From Squalus acanthias (taxonomy: Eukaryota), in the NCBI GenBank assembly GCA_030390025.1, contig CM059432.1, positions 38,132,001 through 38,196,000 of the forward strand: a stretch of 64,000 nt of DNA, read 5' to 3'. The translations under genes and the position numbers were made by a program. The notes under the pieces are model-generated. The model saw only the letters and a program-made list of their open reading frames with translations, searched no databases and was not told the origin of the DNA. Positions 1,089 to 42,102 of the stretch are shown one piece after another; position 1 is the stretch's first letter; every line of letters begins with the position of its first letter.

Positions 1089-1604
1089 AGTGGCAGGGCT
1101 ATAGTAATAGGGGATTCGATTGTAAGGGGAATAGATAGGGGTTTCTGTGGTCGCGACCGAGACTCCAGGATGGTATGTTGCCTCCCTGGTGCAAGGGTCA
1201 AGGATGTCTCGGCGCGGGTGCAGAACATTCTGGAGGGGGAGGGGGAACAGCCAGTTGTCGTGATACATGTTGGTACCAACGACGTAGCTAAAAAAAGGGA
1301 AGAGGTCCTACAAGTAGAATTTAGGGAGTTAGGAGCCAAGCTAAAAAGTAGGACCTCGAAGGTAGTAATCTCTGGATTACTACCAGTGCCACGTGCTAGT
1401 AAGAGTACAGAGAACAGGATAGTTAGGCTAAATACGTGGCTTGAGCAGTGGTGTAAGAGGGAGGGTTTTAAATTTTTGAGGCATTGGAACCAGTTTTGTG
1501 GTAGGTGTGACCTATACAAAAGGGACGGTCTACACCTGTGCAAAGATGGAACTGATGTTCTCGGGGTAATTTTTGATAAAGCAGTTCGGGAGCATTTAAA
1601 CTAG
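1089..1604 (+). CDS. CR1 ORF1 C-terminal SGNH/GDSL esterase domain (partial)
   Basis: Motifs IGDS, LPGA, HVGTND, DGLHL; frame is open upstream of the ATG at 1170. Confidence 0.9.
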   Translation, partial: SGRAIVIGDSIVRGIDRGFCGRDRDSRMVCCLPGARVKDVSARVQNILEGEGEQPVVVIHVGTNDVAKKREEVLQVEFRELGAKLKSRTSKVVISGLLPVPRASKSTENRIVRLNTWLEQWCKREGFKFLRHWNQFCGRCDLYKRDGLHLCKDGTDVLGVIFDKAVREHLN

Positions 1605-1678
1605 TATGGCAGGGGGCTAGAAACCTATGTAGTGAAATAGAGGAAAGTGAAAGGCAGACAGAAATAAATGGTAAAAGG

Positions 1679-4546
1679 GTGAGGAACAAAAAACAAAGGG
1701 CCAAACTAATTCATAAAAAATGTGAGCATAAAAAAAGCCTGAGGGTTTTATACCTTAATGCGAGAAGCATCAGGAACAAGGTAGATGAATTAGCTGTGGA
1801 AATAGAGGTTAATAATTATGATCTAATTGGGATTACGGAAACATGGTTGCAGGGTGAGCAGGGCTGGGAGCTTAACATACAGGGGTATTCAGTATTTAGG
1901 AAGGATCGACAAAAAAGAAAGGGAGGAGGGGTAGCATTGCTGGTAAAAGAGGGGATAAATGCAATTGAAAGGAAGGATATTAACTCAGTTAATACAGAAT
2001 CTATATGGGTGGAGCTAAGAAATAGCGAGGGGCGAAAAACATTAATAGGAGTGGTATATAGGCCTCCAAATAGTAAAATAGAGGTTGGGGAGGGCATCAC
2101 GAGGGAAATTAGAGAAGCGTGCAATAAGAGCACAGCTGTCATCATAGGTGACTTTAACTTACATATAGATTGGAATAGCCTAATCAGTAAAAATAATGAG
2201 GAGGAGGAATTCCTTGAGTGTTTAAGGGATGGTTATCTGGATCAATATGTCGAGGAACCAACTCGAGAACAGGCTATATTGGACTGGGTACTGTGCAATG
2301 AGAAGGGACTAATTAGTAATCTTGTTGTACGGGGACCCTTGGGTCAGAGCGATCATAACATGATCGATTTCTCACTCGAAATGGAGAGCGAAGAAATTGA
2401 CTCAGAGACTAAGGTCCTGAATTTAAACAAGGGGAATTATGATGCCATTAGACGGGAACTGAGTAGGTCTGATTGGACAACGTTCCTGGGAGGACTGGAG
2501 GTAGATAAACAATGGCAAGCATTTAAAGATAGAATGACAAAATTGCAAAAATTGTTTATACCAATCTGGCATAAAAGGAAATCTAAAAAGGTGACTCAAC
2601 CGTGGATAACAGGGGAAATTAGAGACAGCATAAAATCCAAAGATAGGGCGTATAAAATAGCCAAAAAAAGCGCCAGAGCGGAAGATTGGGAACAGTTTAA
2701 GATAGAGCAAAGGAGGACAAAGGGCTTAATCAAGAGGGGCAAAATAGCTTACGAAAGCAAGCTGGCGGAAAATATAAAAACTAACTCCAAAAGCTTTTAT
2801 AAGTATATCAAGAGGAAAAGACTGGTGAAAACCAAAGTTGGCCCATTGCAGTCAGATACGGGGGAATATATAACGGGAAATAAGGAAATGGCAGACCAAC
2901 TAAATGCATACTTTGGGTCAGTCTTTACGAAGGAAGACACAAAAAACCTCCCTGGGATATCGGGAAAAATAGGGACATTGGCAAAGGAGGAACTGACGCA
3001 AATCAATATCTCTAAGGATATGGTGTTAAGGAAGCTAAAGGGATTGAAGGCAGACAAATCCCCAGGGCCTGATAACATGCATCCTAGGGTACTGAAGGAG
3101 GTGGCCCTAGAGATAGCGGATGCACTAAGTATGATTTTTCAGAATTCATTAGACTCGGGAACAGTGCCCATGGATTGGAGGGTAGCTAACGTTACCCCAC
3201 TATTCAAAAAGGGGGGTAGGGAAAAAGCAGGTAATTACAGACCTGTAAGCCTTACATCAGTTGTGGGCAAAATGCTGGAGTCCATCATTAAGGATGAAAT
3301 AGCGGAGCACTTAGCAAATGGGGACAGGATAGGACAGAGTCAACATGGATTTACAAAGGGTAAATCGTGCTTGACTAATCTATTGGAATTTTTTGAGGGA
3401 GTAACTGGTAAAATAGATGGGGGAGAGCCAGTAGATGTGGTGTACCTGGACTTCCAAAAGGCCTTCGATAAGGTCCCACATAAAAGATTAGCAGGGAAAA
3501 TTGAAGCTCATGGGATAAAGGGGAAAGTATTGACGTGGATAGAGAACTGGCTGTCAGATAGAAAACAGAGAGTTGGAATAAACGGCTCATTTTCTGAATG
3601 GCAGGCAGTAACAAGTGGGGTACCACAGGGATCTGTCCTGGGTCCCCAGTTGTTCACAATTTACATTAATGACCTGGATCAGGGAGTCGGATGCAGCATT
3701 TCCAAATTTGCAGACGACACTAAACTAGGAGGGGGGGTGGGCTCAGAGGAGGAGACCAGGAAGCTCCAGAGCGATTTGGACAGACTGGGTGATTGGGCGG
3801 ATAAATGGCGGATGCACTATAATGTGGACAAGTGCGAAGTTATCCACCTTGGGTGCAGGAACGGGAGGGCAAATTATTATTTAAATGGCAATAAATTGGG
3901 AGAGGGGGAAGTACAGAGAGACCTGGGTGTTCTTGTACACCAGTCACTGAAGGCGAGCATGCAGGTGCAACAGGCGGTCAAGAAGGCAAACGGTATGCTG
4001 GCCTTCATAGCAAAAGGGTTGGAATACAGGAACAGGGATACCTTGCTGCAGCTGTACAGGGCACTGGTGAGACCACACCTCGAGTACTGTGTACAGTTTT
4101 GGTCGCCTCATCTGAGGAAAGATGTTCTTGCCATGGAGGGGGTGCAGCGGCGATTCACCAGGCTGATACCAGGAATGGCGGGATTGACCTATGAGGAGAG
4201 ACTATGTAGTTTAGGGATGTACACACTGGAGTTTAGAAGATTGAGAGGGGACCTCATAGAAGTGTATAAAATTCTGACAGGTCTAGACAGACTAGATGCA
4301 GAAGGAATGTTTCCCTTGGCGGGTGAGAACAGAACTAGAGGACATAATTTAAGGATAAGGGCTAAACCATTTAGGACAGAAATGAGGGGGAATTTCTTCA
4401 CTCAGAGGGTGGTGAACCTGTGGAACTCATTGCCACAGAGGGCAGTGTACGCCAGCTCATTAAATATATTTAAGAGGGAATTAGATATATTTCTACAGGC
4501 AAAAGGGGTTAAGGGTTACGGAGAGAAGGCGGGGACGGGATACTGA
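1679..4546 (+). CDS. CR1 ORF2: APE endonuclease + reverse transcriptase
   Basis: 955-aa ORF with LNARS, ITETW, GDFN, SDH, YRPVSL, DFQKAFD, PQGSVLGP, FADD; frame open from 1580. Confidence 0.95.
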   Translation: MRNKKQRAKLIHKKCEHKKSLRVLYLNARSIRNKVDELAVEIEVNNYDLIGITETWLQGEQGWELNIQGYSVFRKDRQKRKGGGVALLVKEGINAIERKDINSVNTESIWVELRNSEGRKTLIGVVYRPPNSKIEVGEGITREIREACNKSTAVIIGDFNLHIDWNSLISKNNEEEEFLECLRDGYLDQYVEEPTREQAILDWVLCNEKGLISNLVVRGPLGQSDHNMIDFSLEMESEEIDSETKVLNLNKGNYDAIRRELSRSDWTTFLGGLEVDKQWQAFKDRMTKLQKLFIPIWHKRKSKKVTQPWITGEIRDSIKSKDRAYKIAKKSARAEDWEQFKIEQRRTKGLIKRGKIAYESKLAENIKTNSKSFYKYIKRKRLVKTKVGPLQSDTGEYITGNKEMADQLNAYFGSVFTKEDTKNLPGISGKIGTLAKEELTQINISKDMVLRKLKGLKADKSPGPDNMHPRVLKEVALEIADALSMIFQNSLDSGTVPMDWRVANVTPLFKKGGREKAGNYRPVSLTSVVGKMLESIIKDEIAEHLANGDRIGQSQHGFTKGKSCLTNLLEFFEGVTGKIDGGEPVDVVYLDFQKAFDKVPHKRLAGKIEAHGIKGKVLTWIENWLSDRKQRVGINGSFSEWQAVTSGVPQGSVLGPQLFTIYINDLDQGVGCSISKFADDTKLGGGVGSEEETRKLQSDLDRLGDWADKWRMHYNVDKCEVIHLGCRNGRANYYLNGNKLGEGEVQRDLGVLVHQSLKASMQVQQAVKKANGMLAFIAKGLEYRNRDTLLQLYRALVRPHLEYCVQFWSPHLRKDVLAMEGVQRRFTRLIPGMAGLTYEERLCSLGMYTLEFRRLRGDLIEVYKILTGLDRLDAEGMFPLAGENRTRGHNLRIRAKPFRTEMRGNFFTQRVVNLWNSLPQRAVYASSLNIFKRELDIFLQAKGVKGYGEKAGTGY

Positions 4547-4957
4547 ATTGGAGGATCAGCCATGATCTCATTAAATGGCGGAGCAGGCTCGAAGGGCCGG
4601 ATGGCCTACTCCTGCTCCTATCTTCTATGTATCTATGTATCTATGTATTCTAGATTATCCTGTCTTTGGTTTTCAAGCCTTTCATTCTTATGTCATATAT
4701 ATATATATATGAGAAATAATTTCCTAATGTGGAGGATAGATACCAACACAAGCTGGTTAGGTTGAACAGCCAGTTTCTGTGTTGCAATTTACAATGAAAT
4801 GTAATGAAAGCACAGAATTAATTATATAAGGGTAGAATGGGTAATATATTTACAAAGAAAAATAATGCCCTAGAAGCATCTGTTAGGCTGCTGATGAGGT
4901 TTATTGAAGCGATTGCACATTGGTGTCCAGCCATCTGAATCAATGTCTAGAGTCATA

Positions 4958-5973
4958 GGGGTAGAAATTAGGTCGCGCCCCATTTGGGGCGCAAATATCG
5001 TCCGGACGCAAATATTAGCGCCTGGCGCTAATTATCGGCACTGACAGGAAACTTCACTTTTACCTGCCGGATGCAGCGATGCACCGCAAACTGGGAGATA
5101 TTGGCGAGGTCCCCAACAGCAGCTTGGAATGAGCCAGTGGCGTAGAAGTTCAAAGCCACTGTGACCTTCACTGCCACCGACAGAGACGTCCTGGACCTCA
5201 GCTGAGGCTGCAGATCTGGCTGCAGCAGGTGGCAGAGCTCAGTGACCACCTCCTTGCTGTATCGCAGCCTTCGCAAACACAGCTCCTCGGACATATGGAT
5301 GTAGGAGAGCTGTTCACGATATACCCTGGGAGGGTAAGCTCTCCTGTACATGCGCCTGATGGCCCTCCTCCGTCTGGCCATCATTGCCACTCTCTGTCTG
5401 CGTCTCACTATCCTCCGATTCAGCTGGAGCAGGACGACGCCCCCAATCATTGCAGCCCCCATATTCTCTTTGCCAGAAAAGTAATGAGGTACAGCAACTA
5501 AAGTAGCAACAAAGTTAGGATGAACTAGGCAAAACTACCTCACAAAGCGTTGAGTCAATGTAGAAGTCTCTCTCTCTCTCTCTCCGAATCTCTCTCTCTC
5601 TCTCAGAACGAGTGGTGCATAAATGTCGACCACAGAAAAAGACAGGAAGAGGCCCCCTTTAAATAGCGCCCCCCCAGCCCCACACCGATTGATAACGTTC
5701 CAGTCTTCCGGTCGTTGGAAGCGCCAGGCGGTAAGGCAGGGGGCGCCACTCAATTTCCGCTCCGGGGCGCCCCAAGGGCGTTGCACCATGGAATGACGTC
5801 ACAATCTGCGCGCGCAGGTGGTCGCAGCGGTAAGTTTTAGCGCCGCCGCACAATCTCAAGTTAAGTTCCCGAGCGGCGCAAACAGCGCTGCGCCCGGGCG
5901 TTAGCGGCTTAACGCCCCATTAGCGCCCTCTTAAGGCGCTAACAGGAGGCGCAACCAAGTGAATTTTTACCCC
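4958..5973 (-). mobile_element. PIF/Harbinger internal-deletion derivative carrying the transposase 5' part
   Basis: TIRs GGGGTAGAAATT/AATTTTTACCCC, TSD ATA; homologous to 38969-42628. Confidence 0.9.
5028..5462 (-). pseudogene. Truncated Harbinger transposase N-terminus
   Basis: MGAAMIGG...ALNFYATGSFQ, nearly the same as the N-terminus of ORF 40207-41601. Confidence 0.85.
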
Positions 5974-13167: not shown

Positions 13168-14590
13168 CTAGAGAACATAAGAATGTAAGAAATAGGAGCA
13201 GGAGTAGGCCATTTGGCCCTTCGAGCTTGCTCCGCCATTCAATAAGATCATGGCTGATCTTTTACCTCCATTCCACCTTCCCGCACTATCCCCATATCCC
13301 TTAATTCCCTTTGTTCCCAAAAATGTATCGACCTCTGTCTTGAATATACTCAATGACTGAGCATCCACAGCTTTCTGGGGTAGAGAACTCCAAAGATTCA
13401 CAACCCTTTGAGTGAAGAAATTTCTCCTCATCTCAGTCCTAAATGGCCTACCCCTTATTCTGAGACTGTGACCCCGTGTTCTAGATTCCCCAGCCAGGGG
13501 AAACATTTTCTCAGCATTAACCCGGTCAAACCCCTTAAGAATATGTTTCAATTAGACCACCTCTCATTCTTCTAAACTCTAAGGAATATAGGCCTAGTCT
13601 ACTCAATCTCTTCGCATAGGGCAATCCCCTCATCCCAGGAATCAATCTAGTGAACCTTTGTTGCACTCCCTCTAAGGCAAGTATGTCTTTCCTTAGGTAA
13701 GGAGACCAGAACGGTACACAGTACTCCAGGTGTAGCCTCACCAATGCTCTGTATAATTGTAGTAAGACTTCTTTACTCTTATACTCTAGCCCCTTTGTAA
13801 CAAAAGCTAACACACCATTTGCTTTCCTAATTGCTTGCTGTACCTGCATGTTAACTTTCTGTGATTCATGTACAAGGACACCCAGGTCCCTCTGAGTGCA
13901 AACATTTCCCAGTCTCTCACCATTCAAAAAATATTCTGCTTTTTTGTTTTTCCTACCAAAGTGGATAACTTCACAATTCCCCACATTGCATTCCATTTGC
14001 CATGTTCTTGCCCATTCAGTCAACCTGTCTATATCTCTCTGTAGCCTCGCTGCATCCTCCTCACAGCTTACTTTCCCACCTAACTTTGTATCATCAACAA
14101 ACTTGGATATGTTACACTCAGTCCCTTCATCTAAGTCATTAATATAGATTGTAAATAGCTGAGGCCCAAGCACTGATCCTTGCGGTACCCGGCTAGTTAC
14201 AGCCTGCCAACCTGAAAAAGTCCCGTTTATTCCTATTCTCTGTTTTCTGTCCATTAACCAATCCTCTATCCATGCTAATATATTACCCTCAATACCATGA
14301 GCCCTAATTTTGTGTAATAACCTCTTGTGTGGCACCTTATCGAAAGCTTTTTTAAAATTCAAATACACTACATTCTCTGGTTCCCCCTTATCCATCCTTC
14401 GAAAAACTCTAACAGATTTGTCAAACATGATTTTCCTTTCATAAAACCATGTTGACTCTGCCTAATCATATTATGATTTTCTAAGTGCCCTGTTACCACG
14501 TCCATAATAATAGATTCTAGCATTTTGCCTACTACTGATGTCAGGCTAACTGGCCTATAGTTCCCCATTTTTTCTCTTCCTCCTTTCTTA
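13168..14590 (-). mobile_element. CR1 LINE 3' half (RT) with frameshifts
   Basis: ORFs 14368-14568, 13535-14428, 13168-13551; (TTCTTATG)-type tail. Confidence 0.92.
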
Positions 14591-14964
14591 CAATTGGCAG
14601 CTCCTCTGCTTTCATCTATTCATGTTCTGGGTTATTTTACATCCACAGGGCTTTGGTTTAATATCTCATCTGTAAGAAGACACCTCTGACAATGCAGCAC
14701 TCCCTCAGTACTGCACTGAAGTGTCAGCCTTGTGTATGTGCTCAAGTCCCTGGTTTGTTTTGCAGCATTGCATGATTTAGTCTACCAACTATTCATTCTC
14801 TGGTTTCAAAGATTAATTTCTGTGAAGCACAAAGGGTAGTGTGGATTTTCTGGCTCTTTTCATTCTGTCTGCCCAGTCACATCTACCTGATGGAATTTGT
14901 ATTTTCTTTTAGAGATGCATGGAGCAGGTAGAAAAAAAATGAAAATTCTTTGGGCCAGATAGAA

Positions 14965-17766
14965 TTAGTCTGGGTTGTTTGCAGCACACACGAGACAGTT
15001 TGCACAGAACTCGCGGACCTGTTCCCTGAGCCCTGGCCACCATCCCGCTTGCTCTACCCGTTGCCAGGTAACCTCGGGCCCGGGGTGCCCTGCCCCTGGT
15101 CCCTCGTGAGCCAACTGGAGGAATTCCCTCCTGTGCTGCTGCGGCACAACCCACTGCTCCTCGCGGAACAGCATGCCTTCCTTAACTGAGAGGGTTGCCG
15201 TACTGTACGGACCCTCTACTTGCTTCCCCTCAGCAATGGTTTTTAGGACTGTTTTTAGGGCGGGATCCTGGGTTTGGACGGTCTTAAGGTCTAGGGGCAA
15301 TGCTACCCTGGAGTTCCCGGGATTCCCGTCCCTGCCTTGGATCGCTGCCATGGGTCTGGTCCCATAGGGGTCCCAGAAAATGCCGTCGCGGGCACCTTCC
15401 CTGGCTAGCGCATCCGCCTGTTGGTTGCCCTCCCCACGGGGCTCTGTGGAGGAGTGAGCCTTCACCTTATGGATGAAAATCTCCCCTTCCTCCCCTACTG
15501 CTGCTAGGATCTTTTCCAGCAAGGGCTTCACCGTTAAAGGTCGCCCGTCCGCGGAGGTGTATCCACGGCGGGACCAAATGGCCAGGTATTCCGTACACGA
15601 ATTGCAGGTGAACATACTGTCCGAGCAAATCGTGTATGGGGTTGGGAAAATGTCTGGGTGGGTAACAACGTACACCACGGCAGACAGCTCAGCCTGCTGC
15701 GCGCTCATGGTGCTAGGGAGCTTGATCGCCAGGGCAAGGTTTGCCGCAGGGTCATAAACTCCACACCCTGTGAGTCGTTCGCCAGCAGATACTGTGCTAG
15801 ACCCATCAACATAAATCTCGCGCCCAGTGGGATGTATCCCGGCCCGCAAGCCTATGTTGACGTCCCACACCCCTTCCACCGAACATCGGTGGGCTGTACC
15901 GGGGTATACCAAATTGGCCGCAAGCCTGGGCTCGCAAAGACCTTTAACTCTAAGATCCATCTGGGAAAGAAGAAGGGTCCAGCGCGCAATACGCACGCTG
16001 CTTACGGTCCCATCTTTAATCCTCCCATCTAGAAGCATCTTAGTTGGTGTGTGATGGGTGAGGAGAGTGATGGGAGAGAGCCCTGTGAAGATCGCTGATC
16101 TTTTCACAGCCCAATGCGTGGCTAAAAGGTGCCTTTCGCAATTGGAGAAACTTCTCTCCACATCCGTTAACACCCTGGATGAATAGACAACCGGCCTCAG
16201 CTTGCCGTGACGCTCTTGGAGCAGCACAGCGCTCAAGCTGTCCCCGCTGGCAGCTACCTTCAGGAAAAACTCCTTCCCCCCATCTATGGCCCCTAAAGCT
16301 GGCGCGGTCTGCAGATCCCTTTTTAACTTCTCGAAGGCTGCTTGGCAGCCCTCGTCCCAAGACCACTCCACTCCCTTATGGAGGAGTCGGAGGAGCGGCG
16401 CCGCTGTGGCCGCATAGTCTTCGATAAAATCCCTGCAGTAACCGGTCAGTCCCAAGAAGGACCTCACACCCCTTATGGTGTTGGGAATCGGTAACTCTTG
16501 CACCGACTCCCTCCTAGCTTTATCTATGGCTCTTTCCCCAGCGCGAATGGTCAGTCCCAGGAATTTTACTTCCTGCTGACTGATACGTGCTTTCTTAGGA
16601 TTTATTTTAAAACCCTTTCTCGCTAGCAGCTCCAATAACTCGTCCAGCAGTGGTCCATGCTCCTCCCTTGAATCCGTAAATAGGAGCAAATCATCCACGT
16701 ACTGCACTATCTGATTGGGCTGACTAAACTCCTTTAAACTTCCTGCCATACACTGATGGAAAATACTGGGGCTATTGTGGAAACCCTGTGGCAGACAGTT
16801 CCATGTGTACTGTTGTCCTTTGAAAGTAAAGGCAAACTTGTACTGGTCCTCTCGCCGCAGCGGGATGGACCAAAAACCGTTCGAGATATCCAGCACCGTG
16901 AACGTGGTCGCGGACGCTGGGATACTCCCTATTAGGTCAGCAACTGCTGCTACCGTGGGCGCGCAGGCGGGAATGTTACTGTTAAGGACTCTGTAGTCCA
17001 CCGTGGCCCTCCACGAATTATTCGGCTTCCTAACCGGCCATAATGGGGAGTTCACGTGTGTGGCTATCGGCCTCAACACGCCCTGCTGCACCAAGGAGGA
17101 CATTGCTGTCTCCATATCGGGTTCTGCTTCTTTGGGGAAGTTATACTGCTTTTGGGGCCGGGTCATGGGGTCCCCATCTACGCTGACCTCAAACCCGGTA
17201 ACCCTCCCACAATCGTGCTTGTGGGTTGCAAACGCGTGCATATTATCTGACACGTACGCTTGCATGTCCGTTGGGACATCTGCGACCATAAGCCCGAGGT
17301 CGTAGCCTCCGGATGGCTGCATGGTACACAGGACCCCTGTTTCTTCCTCCCCCGGAATTACCACTACCTCGCCCTTTTCACTCTTAGCCCCCCAGAGACA
17401 ATGATTTCTGAGGTCCACGAGGATCCCGTGTCCTGATAGAAGATCGGACCCGAGGATACCTCTTCCACCCCCCTCCTGCCATTCCATCAGTATGCACTTC
17501 CACTTGACGTGCAGTGCCCCCAAACGAATGGACAGCGGAAAAGAGAACGCGCCAGCCTGTTCTTTTCCCGTGAACCCCGCTAATGTGAATGGAACCTTGG
17601 TAGATAGCGGTGAGTCAAAAGGGCTATCTGTATGAATCACGGTGCAAGAAGCTCCCGTGTCCAACAAATAACTACCCTTCTGTTTCTCTACCTCCATCTC
17701 CACCAAGGGTCGCTTCCACGCATCATAGCTGAGCGGACACAGGTTGACGGGCTGCGCGGGCTCTAG
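14965..17766 (-). CDS. pol: Pol: protease, RT, degenerate RNase H (tether), RNase H, integrase N-terminal zinc finger (truncated)
   Basis: LLDTGAS; WPVRK, DISNGFW, LPQGFHNSP, YVDD; YVDGS, SAQQAEL, KVKAH, GNQQAD; H-H-C-C at the end; frame open up to the gag stop. Confidence 0.92.
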   Translation of the reverse strand, partial: LEPAQPVNLCPLSYDAWKRPLVEMEVEKQKGSYLLDTGASCTVIHTDSPFDSPLSTKVPFTLAGFTGKEQAGAFSFPLSIRLGALHVKWKCILMEWQEGGGRGILGSDLLSGHGILVDLRNHCLWGAKSEKGEVVVIPGEEETGVLCTMQPSGGYDLGLMVADVPTDMQAYVSDNMHAFATHKHDCGRVTGFEVSVDGDPMTRPQKQYNFPKEAEPDMETAMSSLVQQGVLRPIATHVNSPLWPVRKPNNSWRATVDYRVLNSNIPACAPTVAAVADLIGSIPASATTFTVLDISNGFWSIPLRREDQYKFAFTFKGQQYTWNCLPQGFHNSPSIFHQCMAGSLKEFSQPNQIVQYVDDLLLFTDSREEHGPLLDELLELLARKGFKINPKKARISQQEVKFLGLTIRAGERAIDKARRESVQELPIPNTIRGVRSFLGLTGYCRDFIEDYAATAAPLLRLLHKGVEWSWDEGCQAAFEKLKRDLQTAPALGAIDGGKEFFLKVAASGDSLSAVLLQERHGKLRPVVYSSRVLTDVERSFSNCERHLLATHWAVKRSAIFTGLSPITLLTHHTPTKMLLDGRIKDGTVSSVRIARWTLLLSQMDLRVKGLCEPRLAANLVYPGTAHRCSVEGVWDVNIGLRAGIHPTGREIYVDGSSTVSAGERLTGCGVYDPAANLALAIKLPSTMSAQQAELSAVVYVVTHPDIFPTPYTICSDSMFTCNSCTEYLAIWSRRGYTSADGRPLTVKPLLEKILAAVGEEGEIFIHKVKAHSSTEPRGEGNQQADALAREGARDGIFWDPYGTRPMAAIQGRDGNPGNSRVALPLDLKTVQTQDPALKTVLKTIAEGKQVEGPYSTATLSVKEGMLFREEQWVVPQQHRREFLQLAHEGPGAGHPGPEVTWQRVEQAGWWPGLREQVREFCANCLVCAANNPD

Positions 17767-19575
17767 TCATTGGGTATGGTTAGACGGTCCTGCGGCACCT
17801 ACGGGGCCGGTAGCAACCGCCACCTTTCCATGTGCACTCATGAAGTTACGCATGGCTCCCAATACTGATTCGAGGTCGTTGGAAGGGGTGGGTGCACTAG
17901 CTTCCCTAGCAGAGACAGGCATCTGGGCTCGGGCTGCGGGATTTTTATCCCTGGAATCCTTCCAAGGGTTCCTACAGTTCTTGCGCCAGTGCCCTGTCTT
18001 CCCACACCCGTAACAAGCATTAATTGCCTGCGGGGCGCGATTACCCTCCTGATGCCACTCCCTTTGATACGGGGCTGCGGGCCGTACCTCATGTACTTTT
18101 CCCTTAAGGGGACGGGTTCCCATACCCCTTATATTGCGATATCCTATCGTGAGTCGATTCAAAACCGACTCTTCCGTAATGTTGGGGTCATTGGGATCAA
18201 ACCACGCTTTTGCCTGCTCTCTGACGGCTGGTAAACTGTTGGCTACTATGCACCTAAGCCAATGATTTAAACCGGCGCCGTCCATATCGTCGCGCTCTAG
18301 CGTACCTGGACAGCTGCGCTGATATACTGGCCACAGCCTGTCGGCAAAAACCTTCGGGGGTTCTCCCTCCATCTGCACTGTCTGTCCCACTCTAGCAAAC
18401 GGACCTTCATCGTCCGCCCCCAACACTTCTAGGACCTCATTTTTCAATGCCTCATAAGTCTTGGTTCCCCTCTTGCTCTCGTCCGAGAGACACTGAAGGA
18501 TTGAACTGCCTAACGAAAATAACAGCATTTTTGCTGTTTCCCCATCATCGCAGCCGTTGATGGCTGCGGTTTGCTCAACTTCTCTGAAATGTACGGAAGG
18601 GTCGTCTGTCTCGGTCAGCTTCCGTACGTGATTTATCATAACTCTCAGCTGGTGTGAGCTGTGAGGCAACACAAGCTGGCCGAGGAGATCCCCTGGTTCC
18701 TCCCCACCGTTTCTGTTTGGGCCCCTTTTTATACCCGTAACTGGATACAACGGTCCCTTTTCCACTTCTTTCTCAGTGGGCTCTTTCGTTTCTTCCACTA
18801 CTTCCGCCCTTACCCAGGTTTCCGAATAGCTGGGTGGCGCGGAGGGCGCAGTGGCTAATACTTCCTCTGCTTTACTTGGTGGGGATTTCTGAAACTCCTC
18901 ATTTACTAGTGGCTGGTGTGCTGACGGACTGATAAGGCACACCATGCCGTGCGCTTTGTTCACGGCCTTTTTGAGGTGCTCTATCTCTTTTTGGCAGGCG
19001 CTATGATCGGCCCCCTGAAACTTATCCTCAAGGGCCAACTTATATGCCGCCCTAACCCCCGTTAAGCTCTCTTCCTGGGTTCTTATCTGGGCAGCTTGGC
19101 GGGCACATCGTTCCTTTAGTCTGCCCTCACTTAACTTTGCCTCAGTGACCTGGCACTCGAGGTAATCTATCCTTGTTTTATGGTGACTGGTGATTTCCTG
19201 GCGTTCTTGGTGCAGCGCACTTAAATTCCTAATGAGCAATTCCCCTCCAGAGACCTTCTCATCCATTTCCCCCTCTAAATGCCTGATCCGAGCTGTTAGC
19301 GCTGTAATGACCTGGTTTGAAATCTGGACCTGCCTTTTGTAACACATTAGCCAGACTGCTTTCTCGATTGTCTTTTTATGTTCCTTACTTTCCGTCCACC
19401 TTTCGGCTGCCTCTAGTGGACTCTTATCCGCTAACAATTCACTTATCCATTTCTTAGTTAGATTAACCTTTCCGAACACATAATCTGCTATCTTTTCCTG
19501 CATAACATTTCGTACAGTCACACCAAAGTCTAACACACTACCCTCTCGCTGCCAGTGTCCTGCCGCGGTCGCCAT
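17767..19575 (-). CDS. gag: Gag: coiled coil, PSAPPSY late domain, CCHC zinc knuckle
   Basis: 602-aa ORF directly upstream of pol; CYGCGKTGHWRKNC. Confidence 0.88.
   Translation of the reverse strand: MATAAGHWQREGSVLDFGVTVRNVMQEKIADYVFGKVNLTKKWISELLADKSPLEAAERWTESKEHKKTIEKAVWLMCYKRQVQISNQVITALTARIRHLEGEMDEKVSGGELLIRNLSALHQERQEITSHHKTRIDYLECQVTEAKLSEGRLKERCARQAAQIRTQEESLTGVRAAYKLALEDKFQGADHSACQKEIEHLKKAVNKAHGMVCLISPSAHQPLVNEEFQKSPPSKAEEVLATAPSAPPSYSETWVRAEVVEETKEPTEKEVEKGPLYPVTGIKRGPNRNGGEEPGDLLGQLVLPHSSHQLRVMINHVRKLTETDDPSVHFREVEQTAAINGCDDGETAKMLLFSLGSSILQCLSDESKRGTKTYEALKNEVLEVLGADDEGPFARVGQTVQMEGEPPKVFADRLWPVYQRSCPGTLERDDMDGAGLNHWLRCIVANSLPAVREQAKAWFDPNDPNITEESVLNRLTIGYRNIRGMGTRPLKGKVHEVRPAAPYQREWHQEGNRAPQAINACYGCGKTGHWRKNCRNPWKDSRDKNPAARAQMPVSAREASAPTPSNDLESVLGAMRNFMSAHGKVAVATGPVGAAGPSNHTQ
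19558..19574 (-). promoter_or_regulatory. Putative primer-binding site overlapping the gag start codon
   Basis: TGGCGACCGCGGCAGGA begins after a 5-nt spacer following the LTR end; partial similarity to recalled tRNA-Ser 3' ends. Confidence 0.45.
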
Positions 19576-19579
19576 TTTC

Positions 19580-21203
19580 TGTAAGGGTTTCGACGTGTCT
19601 CTCAGCCTGTGAGATTGGCGTGGCTCTGTGCAGCCTGTATGTCAGTGCGGGTTTAGGCCTTGTTGCCTGTTCTGGTCTCCAGCCAGTCTGGGAGCACTAG
19701 ACACACCTGTGAGTGGTTCGAATCACTCGCCCTTACGGTTCTAGACACTGGACTTAGATGCGAGAGCAGTAATGGAGATGAAACTCAGGTAGACTCGGTT
19801 GAATGGTACGAAATGGAAAATCTTTATTGCATAATACTTAAGATTACGAAATACATGTCATAAGCACAGATTAACGACAGTACAATCTTACACGCAGTTA
19901 TGTAACTAATTTCAGGGAAACGAGGAACGAACGACACACCGTAAATGGGGGCACACATTACAATTATCCTTAATACTTAAACCCTCCCCTATCAATACCT
20001 ATTCTAAACTAGATTCGTAGGATTCGAGACTCATGCTCACCACTCGTGATAACTCGGAGAAATTCCGAATAGCTGATCGGATGTTTTCACCGCAGCACCC
20101 ACGTGTCGATCAGGGGGTCTCCTGGTCCCACTTGTTTACTTGTTTCTGCTCCGGCTAGAAGGCTAGGACGTCTGCTGTCATGAAGATCTGTATTGGTGGG
20201 TTTCACATTCCAGTCAACACTTAAGAAAAGAATTTTCCGGTGTCCGTTCCTTAAAGTTCAAAGAAGTCTTCCTGGCAAGGAAAATGTCAATTCGACCTAC
20301 AGGCGCGGTCGGGGCTTACTGACCGTGGCGATAAGTATGGTCTTCGTCTCTTCCCATCTCATCTCATCTCATCTCTTCTCGGGCCTTTGGTTCCGATACC
20401 GGTTACCAATACAGGTCTTCGCGACCCGACACGAGGTAGATCCGAGCGGATCACAAAGTTCAACAGTCTTTTAAAAGAGACACGAGGCAAGCAGGAACAA
20501 GACGGCAAGTCAAAAGCACAGGAGCAGCCACGAGGATGAACGCCAGCAAGATACGAAGATAAGAGCATAAGAGAGAGATGGACGGTTGGAGCTTGTAATT
20601 ATAGTACAAAATCTTCCGTTTCCCGCCCAACCTTAATGTCTTTTCTTTTGTTAGGGTTTGGCGCTCAAATGTCTTGTATAGGTGATCTCCGTTTTTAATG
20701 GGTTTCGGGGCTACTCGTAAATGTCTGAGTACCTGTTAATATTTCTCCCATTGTTTAATCGGTCGGTGTTCTCCCTGGAGGGGTTTTGGGGCCTCCAAGT
20801 GTTTTCTGTAACTACCCGCTAACGGCTCTCTCATCGTAGAGTCGTTGGGATTTTACATATTAATGTCTTTGGATGGGTTCTTGATTACTGGGTACAATAG
20901 CCTTCATTCGTACCTGGGAGACCGATTTCAGTATCTATGTGTATACTACAAACCCAAGATGTCTCGTGTATTATCTTCAATGTGCTGAATCTTAATCGAT
21001 CTTGCACAAATGTTTATTGGAACGCCATCTTGTCTGCCTGTCGAAAAGTCTAGAATGTTCCGCCACGAGGTGCGGCGGCCACTTTACAAGCTGCTTGTGT
21101 CCACTTTGAAACCTGACAGCATTCTGCTGAAATAAAAGCTGTTTGAACGAAACTATGTGTTTTCTCCTTATTAATAAAATCGCGATATATTGCGAATTCT
21201 ACA
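19580..21203 (-). repeat. 5' LTR (about 1.6 kb)
   Basis: TGTA...TACA termini; boundaries set by homology to solo LTR 24285-25939; TATA-like near 20600, AATAAA at 19828-19823. Confidence 0.85.
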
Positions 21204-21775
21204 TTACTCTCCCTCACACCATATTAGATAGGGATGTTCATTCAATTTTCTGGCTGGCACTAGAACCAACAGAATGCAAGCTTTCGGTGCAGTAACTTTA
21301 TGCCAATTGTAATCATAAGCATAAATGAAAATCTTATGCTATAGCCAGGACTTTGTCATGAGGCGAAGTTTCTTACAATCCTTTCAAAAATCTGGACACC
21401 AGGATGAGTTCAACTAAGCTGCTTAGAGGGAGTGGCATTGTGGCATTATCATACACAGCTCCTGAACTGTGTTTAAAATATTCACCGAATAGATTTTGTA
21501 CCTGTCACCATTTCAGCAATAACAAACACAACAGAATATCTTCTCTATCCAAACATTAGATCGCAAATCTCTTCCCTGTTCTATTATAAGCCACAATACC
21601 ACATAATGCTATCATCTGAATTGCTAACTCTTTGAATGGCCATGTACAGGAAGGGTCTTAAAACTCTACTTTGGAGGCAGATCCTTCCTGTGTGACATTT
21701 TACCAGGAAGAATAGGGAATCTGAGAAACATAAGGGTTAAAATCACCTTGTGCAATAACAACAACTTGCATTTAT

Positions 21776-24284: not shown

Positions 24285-25939
24285 TGTAAGGGGTTTTGTC
24301 TCTGGGACTGGTGCGAGGTGAGGCTTTCGTTGCCTGTATTATTGTTTGCTCTGGTCTCCGGCCAGCCTTTGACAATAAGCACCTGTGAGTGGTTCGACCC
24401 ACTCGCCCCTACGGTTCTGACACCTGGACTTAGATGCAAGGAGCAGTAATGCAGAGAAAAGACTCACATAGACCTGGTTGAATATCACGAAACGAATGTC
24501 TTTATTGCATGGCGTCTAAAATCATGAAATACATATCGTAGGCACAGATCAAAGAGAGTACCAGTATACACACGTTCATAAAACTTGGTCTAGGGAAATG
24601 GAGAACACACGGCACATCGTAAAAAGGGGAACACATTATACCTTAACCTTATTAAAAACCACCCTCCCTTAACAATACCTAAACTACGTCTGGATTTGTA
24701 GGATCGGGAAACATGCTCACCACTCGGTTTACTTCGGAAATTTAAAATGAGGCTCTCGGCTCGCTCCGCTGCGGCACCTGACTGTCACGTGGCTGTAAGA
24801 GTTTCTGCACCCCACTTGTTTACGCTCGCTGCTGCGAATGGGTCCACTTGGGGCGGCCCCCAGTAAAGTTCGTTGCGGGTGGCTCAGGCTACCTGCTCAA
24901 AGAGCCGGAGGGTAAGCCAGACTCCCTGATGTTATGAAGTGGTTCTTTGGACACAGACCGTCTTAGAATTCAAAGAAGAATCTTCCTGTATTACTTTTGG
25001 GCGCGGTCGGGGTTTACTGACTGCGGCGGCACGTGGAATTTCTTCTCGTCTTTCTTCTCGTCTTCTTCTTGATGACTCGGGCCTCCGGGTCCGGCCACCG
25101 TTTACCGACACTCGGGATGGTGCACCCCGGTACCTGACCTGTCGAGGTGACTCGTTCCGATCGAGCTCCACCCAACATTTGCTCCGCTGAAGGAACCAAC
25201 GAGCGGGGCAGAGACCTGCGAAGAGTCCGACGTCACGAGCAAAACCGTCAAGAGTCCAGGGCAGAGAATCAGGAGTCAGGCCAAGAGTCAAGAGAGCGAT
25301 GGACATTTGTCCGGTGTAGTTATACTGTTTGTCGACCTTATCTCCCGCTCAAATCTAAACGGTTATTCTTTGTGTAATTTTGGTGCCCAAGACTCCCAGC
25401 ATGGGGCAATTATCTTCTTAACGGGTTTCGGTATCACCCGAAACTGGCCAACTATACGTTAATGTCTTTACCATTGTTGAACTAGCCAGGGCGGGTCTGA
25501 ATCGTCTCCTCGACTGGTTTTGGGCCCCCCCCCCCGAATACTGGTTTAATCACCCGTCAATGTCTCTCTCATTGTAGAGCCGGGGGGATATTTGTGTATT
25601 GATGTGTCTGGATGGGTTTTTGATGGCTTAGTTCAGCGATACTTATTGTGCGTGTAAAGCGATTCCAGCACTTATCTCATTGCTTAGTTCAAAAATGCAA
25701 ACGGGTTGCATCCTGTCTTTTCAATGTGTACCGAGTATGATCTCATATCGAATGTATATTCGACGCCATCTTGTCTGCCCACTGTGTTTCTGGAAGCTTC
25801 TGCCACGATGCGCGGCGGCCATTTTACAGGCTTCTGTGTCCTTTATTATCAGGACAGCATTCCGTTTAATAAAAATGATCAATCGAATTATACTGTTTCT
25901 CTCGTCTTATTTGAATCGCGATAATTGCGAAACTCTACA
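24285..25939 (-). repeat. Solo LTR related to the LTR at 19580-21203
   Basis: TGTA...TACA termini, 4-bp TSD AAAG, colinear but diverged homology. Confidence 0.88.
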
Positions 25940-27330: not shown

Positions 27331-27758
27331 ACAATGTCTGCTTCCTTCTCTAAAAATGTATTTATACATCAATCCCATCTTTGATCACTAGATGGCTCTT
27401 TACAACATTTCACAGTTCATTACATCTTTGTTTCAGGAAACAGCAACTTTTTAAAACTAAACTCAAAATATTTATAAAATCCAGATTGTATGTTAGAGGA
27501 TTATTCTTATTATCTTTCATGCAAGTAAACCGTAAGATGGATTTTGGATTTGAGTTGGGTGTCGCCTTTCTGGTCCGCTCTTTCAACACTCAGGATTAAT
27601 CTGTTGTTAGCCAGTGTTTTAGTGTCCTTAATCAACTCTTCTTGCACTGGCTGCAACCTTTCAGACATCTTGATAAGATTTCTTCTGATGCTTCTTAACT
27701 GCTGGCCTCTTGGCTCATCACTTTATTGCAGAACAATTGTGGGTTTCCATTCATTTTG

Positions 27759-29560
27759 CCCCACACACTCCCCCCCACCCCCTCCCACACTCCCCACACT
27801 CCCCACACTCTCCCCACCCCCTCCCACCCCCCCACACTCTCCCCACCCCCTCCTCACCCCCCACACTCTCCCCACCCCCTCCCACCCCCCACACACTCTC
27901 CCCACCCCCTCCCACACCCCACACACCCCCACCCCCTCACCCCACACACTCCCCCCACCCCCTCCCACACACACCCCCCACCCCCTCCCACACCCCACAC
28001 ACTCCCCCCACCCCACACACTCCCCCCCCCCCCTCCCGCACCCCCCACACTCCCCACACTCCCCACCCCCTCCCACCCCCCCACACTCTCCCCCCCCCCC
28101 CCCCCCCCACACTCCCCCCACCCCCTCCCCCCCCCCACACTCCCCCCACCCCCTCCCCACCCCACACACTCCCCCCCACCCCCTCCCACACCCCCCACAC
28201 TCCCCACACTCTCCCCACCCCCTCCCACACCCCCACACTCTCCCCACCCCCTCCCACCCCCCCACACTCTCCCCACCCCCTCCCAGCCCCCCACACACCC
28301 CCCACCCCCTCCCACACCCCACACACTCCCCCCACCCCACACACTCCCCCCACCCCCTCCCACACCCCACACACTCCCCCCACCCCACACACTCCCCCCA
28401 CCCCCTCCCGCACCCCCCACACTCCCCACACTCTCCCCACCCCCTCCCACCCCCCCACACTCTCCCCACCCCCTCCCACCCCCCCCCCCACACTCCCCCC
28501 ACCCCCTCCCCCACCCCACACACTCCCCCCCACCCCCTCCCACACCCCCCACACTCCCCACACTCTCCCCACCCCCTCCCACACCCCCACACTCTCCCCA
28601 CCCCCTCCCACCCCCCCACACTCCCCCCACCCCCTCCCACACCCCACACACTCCCCCCACCCCACACACTCCCCCCACCCCACACACTCCCACACCCCAC
28701 ACGCTCCCCCCACCCCCTCCCCCACCCCACACACTCCCCCACGCCCTTCCACACCCCACACACTCCCCCACACACTCCCCCCCACACTCCCCCCCACACT
28801 CCCCCCACCCCCCACACTCCCCCCACCCCCTCCCACCCCCCCCACACTCCCCCACCCCACACTCCCCCCCCACCCCACACACTCCCCCCCACCCCCTCCC
28901 CCACCCCACACACTCCCCCCCTCCCCACACACTCCCCCCCACCCCCTCCCCCACCCAACACACTCCCCCACCCCACACTCTCCCCCCACCCCACACACTC
29001 CCCCCCACCCCACACACTCCCCCCCCGCACCCTCCCCCACCCCCTCCCCCACCCCACACACTCCCCCCCACCCCCTCCCCCACCCCACACACTCCCCCAC
29101 CCCACACACTCGCCCCACACTCCCCCACCCCACACACTCCCCCCACACTCCCCCACCCCACACACTCCCCCACCCCACACACTCCCCCCACACTCCCCCA
29201 GCCCACACACTCCCCCACCCCACACACTCCCCCACCCCACACACTCCCTCACACCCCACACTCCCCCCCACACTCCCCCCACGCCCTCCCACCACCCCCA
29301 CCCCCCCACACCCCCCCACACTCCCCCCACACCCCACACTACCGCCCCCAAACTCCCCCACCCCCTCCCACACCCCCCCACACTCCCCCCATCCCACACT
29401 CCCCCTCACACCCCCACTCCACCCCCCACACTCCAGACTCTCCCCCACACCCCCAGCCCACCCCACACACCCCACACCCCACACTACCCCCCACACCCCC
29501 ACGTCATGCCCCCCCACTCCCCCACAGCAGTCTCCCCCCCCACACACACAGCCCCCCACG
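27759..29560. repeat. C/A-rich degenerate minisatellite (CCCCACACACTCC-like units)
   Basis: About 1.8 kb almost entirely C, A and T on the plus strand. Confidence 0.95.
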
Positions 29561-29678
29561 TTCTGCCAGGTTTCCCAAATCCTCAGAACCCCTCCCCACC
29601 CCCCCAAACTACCCTGCTCCCAACCCGCCTTCCCCATTAAAATTCAACACTATGTGTGGAGAACTACATTGAGACTTT

Positions 29679-30500
29679 GGCCGCGATTTTGTGATCGATG
29701 TCGGGATGGTTGCGGGTCAGCTGGTTTCCGGGTTCCAGTCCCGCCCCCAGCTGCCTCCGCTCCACAGATGTGTTTTTCCCTTGAATGACCTTGTCAAGCC
29801 CGCCCTGCGGGCTTACCGGCCAATTAACAGGAAGCAGGTCTGATGACGTCATTTGATGATGCGTCATCTGCCGGTTTCCATAAAGGGACCACGCACAATT
29901 TTATTTTGACAGTTGACTTTTCAGTGTTTGACAGCATTGAGGTGCTGAAACATTGACAATCACTGCACAAAGATGAGCTCTTGCACCCAGGCTCTCCAAT
30001 GACTCCCTCCATATGCTGGAACAGATGGCAGCTGCAGGTGAGATGACAGAAGCGATCTGTCACTGGTGAGAAAGGTTCTCCCAATGAGGTGGCACTGGAC
30101 ATACAGTTGGATTTAAAAACTGGTAAGCTAAAGAAATCTGTATATGTATTAAAAATGCAGTAACCAACATTTTCTTTGCTCTGAAACTCACCATGTGCAG
30201 CATTGGATCCTTCACACCACTTCTGCAGCTGTCATCTTTTCACAAACATTAGACCAGACTCACAGCACGCCACACTTACTTGGCGTGTTGTCCAAACATC
30301 GTGAAACCCGACCCAGAAGCAGGAAAATTGAAAAACAGCCTGAAAACTACTGTCAAGTATCTGTTAATAGGCAGGTAATTGCCTTTAATCCGTTTCCCGC
30401 CGCTAGGTGTCGGGTCCATTCGCAAATCGGGGACCCGACACTTGGGAAGGTTGTTTGGAGGCGGGTTGACGGCGGGATCGGAACCCGCCGTCAATCAAAA
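29679..30500 (+). mobile_element. Decayed Harbinger derivative of the 36744-38517 family
   Basis: 29770-30020 matches 36840-37080; 30430-30495 matches 38390-38452. Confidence 0.65.
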
Positions 30501-31891: not shown

Positions 31892-32316
31892 CATAGAAAC
31901 ATAGAATCTAGGAGCAGGAGTAGGCCATTCGGCCCGTCGAGCCTGCTCCACCATTCAATACGATCATGGCTGATCATCCAAATCCAGTACCCTGTCCCTG
32001 CTTTAATCCCCACAGTACACATATCCCACCCTACCCCCGTAACCCCACGTATTTAATTCCCCCTAACATATCCCATCCTATCCCCATAACCCCACATATT
32101 TAATCCCCCCCTAACACTAAGGGTCAATTTATCATAGCCAAATCAACCTAACCCGCACATTTTTGGACTGTGGGAGGAAACCGGAGCACCCGGAGGAAAC
32201 CCACGCAGACACGGGGAGAATGTGCAAACTCCACACAGACAGTCACCCGAGGTCAGATTCGAACCCGGGTCTCTGGCGCTGTGAGGCACCAGTGCTAACC
32301 ACTATGCCACCGTGTT
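31892..32316 (-). mobile_element. HE1-like V-SINE
   Basis: tRNA-like head, V-domain TGTGTGGAGTTTGCACATTCTCCCCGTG, CR1-type tail; near-identical to 42103-42521. Confidence 0.88.
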
Positions 32317-33927
32317 GAAATTTCTCTGCATTAAATTTCATCTGCCATGTGTCTTCCCATTTCACCAGTCTAAGTCCTACTGAAGTTTATTATTATCCTC
32401 CTCATTGTTTACTACATTTCGGAGTTTCGTTTCAAGCGCATTTTAAAAGTCCATATACACATTAACCGCACTACCCTCATCCACCGTCTCCGTTACTTCA
32501 TCAAAGAACTCAATCAAGTTAGTCGAACATGATTTGCCTTTAACAAATTGTACTGGCTTTCATTTATTAACCTATATTTTTCCAAGTGTCAATTAATTTG
32601 GTCCTGGAATAATATCACCGACGTTAGGGTGATTGGCCTGTAATTGCCGGGTTTATCCCTTTCCCCTTTTTTTTGAAAAGGGGTGTAACATTTGCAATCC
32701 TCCAGTCATCTGGCACCATTCCCATATTTAAGGAGGACTGTGGCTAGAGCCTCCACAATTACCACCCTTACTTCCCTCAACAACCTAGACGGCATCCCGG
32801 ACTGGGTGGCTTTTCCACTTTGAGCGCTGCCAACCTTTTAAGTACCTCCTCTTTATCTATTTTTATTCTATCCAATTTTTCTACTACCTCCTCCTTTAAT
32901 GTGACATTGGCAACTTTCTTTAGTGAACACAGATGCAAAGTATTCATTTAGTACTTCAGCCATGTCCTCTGCCTCCATAATCGGCCCCACCCTTACTTTG
33001 TCTACCCTTTTACTATTTTTATATTTATAAAAGACTTTAGGGTACCCTTTTATGTTACCCACTAATCTATTCTCATACACTCTTGTTGCCCTTCTTATTT
33101 CCTTTTTCAGTTCTCCGCTGTACTTTTTATATTCAGCTTGGTTCTCTACTGCATTATGAACCCGACATTTATCATAAGTTTCCTTTTTCTGTTTCATTTC
33201 AATCTCCATATCTTTAGTCATCCAGGGAGCTCTAGTTTTGAATGCCCTTCCTTTTCCCCTCGTGGGAATGTGTCTAGTCTGTACCTGAACTATCTCCTCT
33301 TTGAAGACCTCTCATTGCTCATTTACTGTTTTACCTGCCAATCTTTGATTCCAATCCACCTGGGCCAGGTCCCATTTCAACTCACTGAAACTAGCCCTCC
33401 TCCAGTTGAATATTTTCCTTTCCTTTTGCATAACTACTCTACACCTAATGATATTGTGATAACTGTTTCCCAAATGCTCTCCCACTGAAACAACCTCCAC
33501 TTGCTCCACTTCATTCCCCAGAACTAGATCCAGCACTGCTTCCTTCCTCGTTGGGCTGGAAACATACTTATCAAGAAAGTTCTTCTGTACACATTTCAGA
33601 ATTCCTCCCCCTCTTTGCCCTTTACACTGTTACTATCCCAGCTTATATTAGGATAATTGAAGACCCCCATTATCATTGCTCTAAAGTTCTTGCATCTTTC
33701 TACAATTTGCCTGCAAATTTGCTCCTCTATCTCTATTCCCACTATTCGTTGGCCTATAGTCTACACCCAGCAGCATAATAGCTCCTCTAGTGTTTCTTAA
33801 TTCTAACCAGATAGATTCTGTCCTTGAACCCTCAAGTACATCATCCATTTCTAGTGCTGTAACAGTATCTTTGATCAATACTGCCACCCCCTGCTTTTTA
33901 TCCTTCCCTATCTTTCCTGAATACCTT

Positions 33928-39325: not shown

Positions 39326-40523
39326 ATGGAGAGGGTGAGAGAACGAGCTCAGCGCTTCACCGAGCGGGCCTTGGATGCTCTGGTTGGCGCGGTGGAGCGC
39401 CGAAGAGCAATACTGTACCCAGAGAATGGCAGGAGGCCTTTGCCGCGCGACTACAGAAGAGTGTGGAGGGAGGTGGCTCAGCGCGTCTCCTCCAGGACCA
39501 TGTCCAATGCCGGAAAAACTTCAACGACCTCACTCGGGTCGTCAGGGTGAGTGGCTTTTTTGCAATACCTCTCCATCCCTCCATCTCAACCTCACTCTAT
39601 GGCCAGAGGGTCTTAAAACCACAATTAACAACACTCATCCAACACCTATGGCCCTTTCATGAAGCACACACACACATTCCATACTTTGCATACAGTAAGG
39701 GCTATTCACCTATGGGAGGCACATCAGGCAAGACCATGGCTGTATACAGTAAGGGCTATTCACCTATGGGAGGCACATTAGGCAAGACCATGGCTGTATA
39801 CAGTAAGGGCTATTCACCTATGGGAGGCACATCAGGCAAGACCATGGCTGTATACAGTAAGGGCTATTCACCTATGGGAGGCACATCAGGCAAGACCATG
39901 GCTGTATATTTACTCAGACGCCGTCCTTTTTCTTGCAGGCCAAGCTGGCGCATAATAGGAGACAGCAGCAACGGACGGGTGGAGGGTGGCCTCAGTTGCA
40001 ACCCCTCAGCGATCTGGAGGAGCGCATCCACAGGATTGTGGCAAGCCGGGTGATCGGTCCCGTCGCCACTGGAGACGCCGACCCCGTTCTGGACAGCAAT
40101 GGTAAGGTCATCACCTTTTTGTCCTCTGTCCTTCCACTTGTCCCTCACAACACCAGTCTTTGACACTTTCAATCCAACTTACTAACTCGCTGCACTTATT
40201 CCTCCCTTACTGCCACCCTGTCCTCACGCTAAAGCCACTCTTGTACCTCCCTGCTTTCAGATGGTGATTCACCAGCTGAGGAGACGGGCCCTGAAGCTGC
40301 CAGTGGGAGTGAAGCTGCAGCCGAGGAGGAAGAGGAAGCCGGAGCATCAGTGCCACCCTCTCCCGAGGAAGCCCATGCCGACACTGGGAACACGCCTTCC
40401 CTGGAGGGGAGCAGGGGGGAAGGGTCTGATGAGGGTGAAGCTCCAGGACCCAGCGGGCTGCAGCAACGCGATGGGGGTAGGGAAGCTCAGGGGCCTTCTC
40501 CCCAGAGTGAGAGTATGCCAGCG
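39326..40523 (+). pseudogene. Harbinger Myb/SANT DNA-binding gene; exons 39326-39546, 39939-40101, 40261-about 40523; frameshift near 39500, 3' end lost
   Basis: RAQRFT...VWREVAQRV...QCRKNFNDL / AKLAHNRRQQQRTGGG; GT-AG introns join in frame. Confidence 0.82.
39691..39906. repeat. 54-bp tandem repeat, 4 copies, in intron 1 of the Myb gene
   Basis: TACAGTAAGGGCTATTCACC...CATGGCTGTA x4, one substitution. Confidence 0.95.
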
Positions 40524-41589: not shown

Positions 41590-41975
41590 ATCTCTAAGCA
41601 AGCAAAGTTATGAAGGCCAGAAACCAAAGTACCAGCGAAGTTAGGATGAGTAGCCAAAACTACCTGACACAGCGTTGACTCAATGCAGAAGTCTCTCTTT
41701 CTCTCTCTCCGAATCTCTCTCTCTCAGAACGAGTGGTGCAAAAATGTCCACCACAGAGAAAGACAGGAAGAGGCCCCCTTTAAATAGCGCCACCCCCCAG
41801 CCCCACAGCGAATGATAGCGTTCCACTCTACCGGTCGTTGGATGTGCCAGGCGGTAAGGATGGGGGCGCCATGAAATTCTGCTCCGGGGCGCCACAAGGG
41901 CGTTGCACTCTCGTATGACGTCACAATCTGCGCGCGCAAGAGATCGCGGCGATAAAGTTTAGCGCCGCCGCAAGT

Positions 41976-42048: not shown

Positions 42049-42102
42049 TCGATTCTTGCAAAGCTGTGTTTCCCTTCTCTCCTCTCAGCTTTCCATTTTT
42101 AA

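Follow-up and report, generated by a model that had tools for sequence, protein, structure and literature searches.

Organization of the element

The window analysed here, a 64,000-nucleotide stretch of the spiny dogfish (Squalus acanthias) genome, carries on its minus strand a truncated provirus whose gag and pol genes share one reading frame and are divided by a single stop codon. Its features are as follows.

19661..21203, minus strand: probable 5' long terminal repeat (LTR), about 1.5 kb, delimited by a diverged second copy that shows both ends
17770..19575, minus strand: gag, 602 codons, with an N-terminal helical region, a capsid-like region and one CCHC knuckle
17974..18015, minus strand: CCHC zinc knuckle, first Cys 82 codons from the stop
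17767..17769, minus strand: in-frame UGA at the end of gag, the putative readthrough codon
17763..17766, minus strand: CUAG 3' context (type II UGA-CUA plus G)
17548..17758, minus strand: extended stem-loop predicted by folding only, +9 to +219 after the stop
14968..17766, minus strand: pol, in the gag frame (Pfam, PDB sequence search)
17661-17659, minus strand: protease catalytic Asp codon, 36 codons past the stop
~17034-16546, minus strand: reverse transcriptase (RT), with YVDD (Pfam/PDB)
~16359-15961, minus strand: tether RNase H (Pfam/PDB)
~15819-15391, minus strand: second RNase H (Pfam/PDB)
~15147-14971, minus strand: integrase zinc finger (Pfam/PDB)
14965..14967, minus strand: end of the element in this copy, just past the integrase zinc finger

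Across the 1536 codons from the gag ATG (19575) to the end of pol, the TGA at 17769-17767 is the sole stop, and the two stop-to-stop open reading frames that it separates, 19641-17767 (624 aa) and 17766-14965 (933 aa), lie in one reading frame on the minus strand. The Pol domains follow the order protease–RT–tether–RNase H–integrase with two RNase H domains (Pfam), as defines Retroviridae. Gag gave no Pfam match; by Atlas features it matches retroelement Gag clusters (best 0.92), and the searches recovered a single Gag homologue, the skate protein P0003, which is 53% identical when taken from its first Met and points to a cartilaginous-fish host. The LTR starts with TG at 21203 and has an AATAAA near 19827, and its 3' end is uncertain, between ~19708 and 19645. 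An LTR-like second copy at 24339-25939 (minus strand), 3 kb upstream in the same orientation, is 68-74% identical, has both ends in common and is probably a related solo LTR. From the LTR end to the gag ATG (19575-19710, minus strand) the leader is very short. No canonical primer-binding site of the TGG type could be recognised in it, and a search with a single published tRNA-Ser primer-binding motif gave 0 matches.

We detected neither an integrase core nor env nor a 3' LTR in the window, and tblastn queries comprising full-length Pol from three relatives and two Env frames had no match beyond 14968. Because it ends after the integrase zinc finger without these parts, this copy is defective. 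Parts of the element's stretch appear in sequencing runs of at least seven organism codes, and 762 contigs from one run align over 801 bases, which indicates a multi-copy family. The best-supported identity is a multi-copy endogenous retrovirus (ERV) family of cartilaginous fish, near snakehead retrovirus (SnRV).

The window also contains a LINE at 1580-4546 (plus strand) with a 988-codon open frame encoding endonuclease and RT domains, and many LINE fragments of this type, including one at 13168-14600 just past the truncated provirus. A 2-kb C-rich low-complexity tandem repeat (27700-29700) produces spurious long open reading frames on both strands. A tandem array of a 54-nt unit occupies 39633-39956, with neighbouring copies 97-98% identical. 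A GC-rich dispersed repeat occurs in both orientations at 4950-5930, 41190-42600, 47650-48500, 54170-55070 and 62290-63150 (75-95% identical). Two adjacent 212-nt inverted matches of 99-100% identity link 31892-32317 with 42105-42522, ~10 kb apart, and are possibly a recent inverted duplication.

Phylogenetic placement

The closest Pol sequences are one relative at 83% identity, followed by frog and coelacanth proteins at ~40%. Among viral contigs, the best match is L023 (10,688 nt, E 1e-111), which we take to be SnRV, as its UAG-GGC junction fits that virus; single-protein scans of the viral contigs gave no match. A scan of genome contigs returned 2 distant loci, and a metagenome scan returned 22 loci, none of them close, with best segments at 24-38% identity.

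In trees of 184, 54 and 28 rows, built with no foamy virus row, the element belongs neither with gamma/epsilon nor with the ERV-L/S-like rows nor with loki plus gypsy; the 54-row tree was a quick tree without L047. A FastTree RT tree joins the element and SnRV with class III-like rows at 0.52. IQ-TREE recovers a gamma/epsilon clade (100/99) that excludes the element and puts gypsy plus loki-motif proteins on their own side (100/99), so that the element's RT groups with retroviruses, and it leaves the deep forks between the element and SnRV without resolution. The geometry of the gag-pol junction and the protease N-terminus are both SnRV-like. A lokiretrovirus identity was rejected, as four loki-motif proteins, recognised by motif and not by name, form a separate clade (two of them in the 100/99 tree). 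The element also departs from spumaviruses in that its pol lies in the gag frame with its first in-frame ATG at +70; spumavirus pol occupies another frame and has its own start codon, according to the available portion of PMC8278194.

The stop codon and its context

The initial annotation described gag and pol as separated by a single in-frame UGA-CUAG, with the frame running on into the protease. This description holds, on the minus strand. The junction has the form of a type II readthrough motif, defined as UGA followed by CUA or CGG with an in-frame open reading frame beyond (PMC13517186 and PMC4132726, available portions); UGA-CUA alone supported 1.5% readthrough in HEK-293T reporters, as given in the accessible part of PMC4132726. 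By itself, the heptamer TGACTAG is no rarity in the window, with 8 matches where 6.7 are expected; it is its position that matters. CTAG follows 10 of the 1535 in-frame codon boundaries of gag-pol, and of 577 single-base substitutions capable of introducing a stop into gag-pol, none yields TGA followed by CTAG. The first in-frame ATG past the stop, at +70, lies 12 codons ahead of the catalytic Asp, and similarity to coelacanth Pol begins at ~+25, ungapped; Pol therefore needs codons upstream of any start codon of its own.

The position of the stop recurs in relatives. The skate Gag ends in the same alignment column as the element's stop, likewise on Gln. The distance from knuckle to stop is 82 codons both in the element and in L023, and 83 codons in CmiERV lineage I of the elephant shark, where an in-frame CAA TGA CAT was read by eye in the available part of the PMC4422223 supplement. 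With the same end column in skate Gag and a like spacing in SnRV and CmiERV lineage I, the stop looks like an inherited junction. The initial annotation proposed a check of TGACTAG conservation across relatives; the context is UAG-GGC in SnRV and UGA-CAU in CmiERV lineage I, and the same part of that supplement holds 0 matches to TGACTAG. The coelacanth gene model P0008 joins a Gag-like part to Pol (residues 228-265), and the residue aligned exactly with the stop is Gln. The next three residues, Gly-Cys-Gln, are those that follow the UAG in one gammaretrovirus reference. This Gln may reflect a mutated UAG, a gene-model artefact or a true fusion, with no preference among the three.

Copies of the element were compared using contigs from 4 of 24 listed runs, representing 4 organism codes, with 40 of 166 differences listed. 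The junction bin is covered in all four runs, no difference falls within 17746-17832 among the 40 of 166 listed, no gap is listed at 17400-17842 in the four runs, and only 2 records, both from run X15, span the stop with 31 letters to either side. A dip in depth at 17670-17696 in run X3 is flagged as a repeat artefact. These data are consistent with conservation of the stop, short of proof. Of the same 40 listed differences, 14 fall in pol, 11 of them synonymous, and 26 in gag, 12 of them synonymous. The other 3 listed pol differences change an amino acid; placed by hand, they all lie between the stop and the first ATG and do not help the case that Pol needs these codons.

Predicted stem-loop downstream of the stop

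Folding the downstream RNA, a check proposed with the initial annotation, gave a strong signal. The segment +1..+225 has a z-score of -8.8, the best of 20 gag-pol segments of 225 nt (next -4.0), and with 120-nt segments this region is the best of 75 (z -7.4, next -3.8). None of 150 synonymous-codon resamples folded as well as +1..+225, and the coding strand reaches -100.7 kcal/mol, compared with -83.3 kcal/mol for the complement. The predicted structure is a stem of ~220 nt behind an 8-nt spacer, with further pairs from +3 to +225 and the protease catalytic codons near its apex. In its basal helix, bases from +9 onward pair with +210 to +219 at pair probabilities near 0.95. By this prediction, the stem-loop starts within the 8-12 nt past the stop that are typical of type II systems.

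The most stable part of the fold lies at ~+50 to +180. The first 87 nt alone give a z-score of +1.4, no better than shuffles, so the fold signal is long-range. The stop bases are paired in the minimum-energy fold only and not in the centroid. Seven of the listed copy differences fall within the stem; inspected by hand, 4 keep or add a pair, 3 break one, and no two-sided change is among them. No comparable stem was found in the 225 nt after the junctions of SnRV (z -0.6), L001 (z -0.1), an SSSV-size contig (z -1.6) or L004 (z +0.4), and the stem is therefore not a shared feature.

UGA-CUA junctions in other retroelements

Among 18 retrovirus reference loci, 15 had resolved junctions, with TAG at 14, TGA-AGA at 1 and TGA-CTA at 0. 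Two epsilon-like fish ERV loci, L001 (1643-1649) and L002 (2736-2742), carry an in-frame TGA-CTA-G 20 codons from the knuckle. They look like one epsilon-like family, and in both another in-frame TGA stands in pol, past the protease region and ahead of RT (L001:2615-2617). A tree uniting L001 and the window element in one clade is rejected by the AU test (p 1.67e-05). Two gypsy-type loci have single in-frame stops of other kinds between gag and pol, TGA-CAG at L004:2373-2378 and TAG-GGA at L006:2272-2277.

In the available part of data set S1 from PMC7947760, TGA-CTA followed by G or A stands in frame at the end of gag and, judged by eye, in frame with the protease region in 7 of 24 lokiretrovirus consensus sequences (Bsp, Ofa, Dcl, Lro, Cne, Pyo and Sau). 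They cover 6 of the 7 sequences with a separately annotated gag; 10 of the 24 are annotated as fused, and the other 7 of the 24 have no resolved junction. The main text of PMC7947760, in its accessible portion, makes no mention of readthrough, a stop codon or a frameshift.

We lean, by a narrow balance, towards the view that alphavirus-style type II readthrough is an unrecognised and widespread route to Pol in aquatic-vertebrate retroviruses, spanning at least three distant lineages, namely the SnRV-related shark and ray family, the epsilon-like ERV of teleosts and a large share of the lokiretroviruses, which are sister to Retroviridae. If this is true, its occurrence in lineages so distant would mean either that fused gag-pol, UAG-pseudoknot and UGA-CUA arrangements have been swapped repeatedly or that UGA-CUA is very old.

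Proposed mechanism and alternative explanations

The reading best supported by these data, and one we regard as probable, is that the UGA is the natural gag-pol junction of the family and that Pol is made by UGA readthrough, as the initial annotation had suggested; it is backed by the stop position in relatives, the predicted stem-loop and the occurrence of the hexamer in two other lineages. Under this model, most ribosomes would terminate at the UGA and release Gag, and a minority, expected from type II systems to be a few per cent, would accept a near-cognate tRNA there and translate on in frame into pol, giving Gag-Pol. The CUAG context would favour decoding of the UGA, and the stem, located 8 nt downstream at the mRNA entry channel, would probably aid readthrough.

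How much the stem contributes is the point on which an alternative carries most weight. Readthrough could be driven by UGA-CUAG alone, with the stem serving packaging, dimerisation or splicing control, and we consider this possible though on balance unlikely. It would fit with the lack of a stem at the other TGA-CTA or readthrough junctions folded, with the location of the most stable pairing away from the stop, and with PSIV, whose UGACUA readthrough is independent of its downstream structure according to the accessible part of PMC13517186. The basal helix predicted from +9 with high pair probabilities, together with the fact that no fold in the 4.6 kb is stronger than the one starting directly at the stop, argues for a role of the stem at the junction. 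The context would be incidental if pol were expressed from a spliced message or from an internal promoter, as happens in foamy viruses and partly in Tca2. Among solved structures, foamy virus PR-RT indeed ranks second (218 bits, behind MLV-type RT with 240), AG dinucleotides are present near the junction, and the skate Gag record carries the name isoform X2. Yet pol lies in the gag frame and its first ATG comes only at +70, the candidate acceptors are poor in T and none exceeds 10 pyrimidines in 15, the one joint listed comes from DNA run X3 only and has non-splice ends, and a leaky context would arise by coincidence in about 1 in 150 cases; separate expression of this kind appears improbable. 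The gag-UGA-pol junction of Candida Tca2, which is likewise followed by a 3' structure, showed no readthrough in a yeast reporter, according to the available text of PMC2194720, and cautions that junctions of this type do not always work in reporters.

Two further explanations would deny the UGA its role as an ordinary readthrough codon, and both are less credible still. Recoding could occur by A-to-I editing on a long duplex or by selenocysteine insertion. ADAR substrates include long imperfect duplexes, the hepatitis delta amber site offers a precedent for A-to-I editing, and the stop sits at the base of just such a predicted duplex. However, its bases pair in the minimum-energy fold only, and a 5' G neighbour disfavours editing. 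An Rfam search of 14500-21500 returned no family at threshold and 1 sub-threshold match, taken as chance; there is thus no SECIS match to support selenocysteine, and we rate recoding as very improbable. Marginally less probable again is that the TGA is a nonsense mutation in a dead copy of a fused gag-pol gene. This idea draws on the truncation of the copy, the Gln at the stop codon in P0008 and the fused annotation of 10 of 24 lokiretrovirus consensus sequences in the available part of PMC7947760. It is opposed by the skate Gag end in the same column, the equal spacing in SnRV and near-equal spacing in CmiERV lineage I, the lack of a second stop in 1536 codons, the context that 0 of 577 chance nonsense changes would give, and a weak search of 7997 candidates in which no longer, fused Gag relative was found. 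Frameshifting was rejected because gag and pol share a frame; the 2 slippery-type heptamers matched within 340 nt are located 143 and 197 nt beyond the stop.

UGA readthrough, the preferred reading, also has a practical consequence. The stop explains why gene callers start such Pol proteins inside the protease, and intact elements can look broken in ERV screens.

Comparison with known systems

The initial annotation regarded a UGA junction as unusual for a retrovirus, which is too strong. An in-frame UGA between gag and pol is given for SSSV, ZFERV and RMEV in the accessible part of a 2026 review and for XtERV-S in that of PMC8278194. All four belong to lineages other than that of the element; the contexts of the first three differ as well (UGAAGA, UGACGA and UGAAGU, respectively), and no cis-element is described for them in that part of the review. 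The UGACGA of ZFERV is close to type II. The retrovirus section of the review, as available, lists neither a type II UGA-CUA(G) context nor an extended stem-loop and calls the cis-elements of epsilon and unclassified fish retroviruses unclear. No account of a UGA-CUA(G) junction or extended stem-loop in a retrovirus turned up in the literature covered, a scope outside which lie most subscription journals, older J Virol and Repbase reports. Within it, what appears new is the UGA-CUA(G) context and the predicted stem at a retroviral junction; UGA junctions and the readthrough mechanism are known.

The signal itself most resembles the alphavirus nsP3-nsP4 junction (Sindbis, ONNV, VEEV; Beier-Grimm type II), which likewise combines UGA-CUA, a spacer of 8-12 nt and an extended stem-loop with a polymerase downstream. 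In VEEV, the spacer is 8-9 nt (PMC3159437, available portion), and the extended stem raises readthrough from 0.8% to 7.6% in HEK293 cells (PMC3159437 and PMC13517186, available portions). Alphaviruses are unrelated, however, and their stems span 126-177 nt with a large loop, whereas the element, known from sequence alone, has a predicted near-continuous 220-nt rod. The identical 7-nt UGA-CUAG motif is conserved across vertebrates in OPRL1, OPRK1, MAPK10 and AQP4, according to the accessible part of PMC4132726; unlike the element, these are cellular genes with short extensions and no polyprotein switch.

Among retroviruses, gammaretroviruses and WDSV also use a single in-frame stop between knuckle and protease to produce Gag and Gag-Pol, but MLV differs in having UAG, a purine-rich spacer and a pseudoknot. 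Lokiretroviruses share the dual RNase H and form a separate clade in every tree built; for their pol, UGA-CUA is a candidate expression mechanism that lies beyond the scope of PMC7947760 as far as its available text goes. The gammaretroviral UAG-pseudoknot is the only retroviral readthrough signal to have been dissected, and the element's junction offers a compact candidate of a different class. Its nearest counterparts, SnRV and CmiERV lineage I, have one CCHC knuckle 82-83 codons before the stop and the stop 32-44 codons before the protease Asp, as the element does. CmiERV lineage I differs in its UGA-CAU. SnRV shares a similar protease N-terminus, YVDD and dual RNase H with the element, and its Gag shows weak similarity (E 5e-4), but its junction is UAG-GGC (type III-like) with no long stem. 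SnRV therefore provides a natural contrast, with the stop at the same place and another signal.
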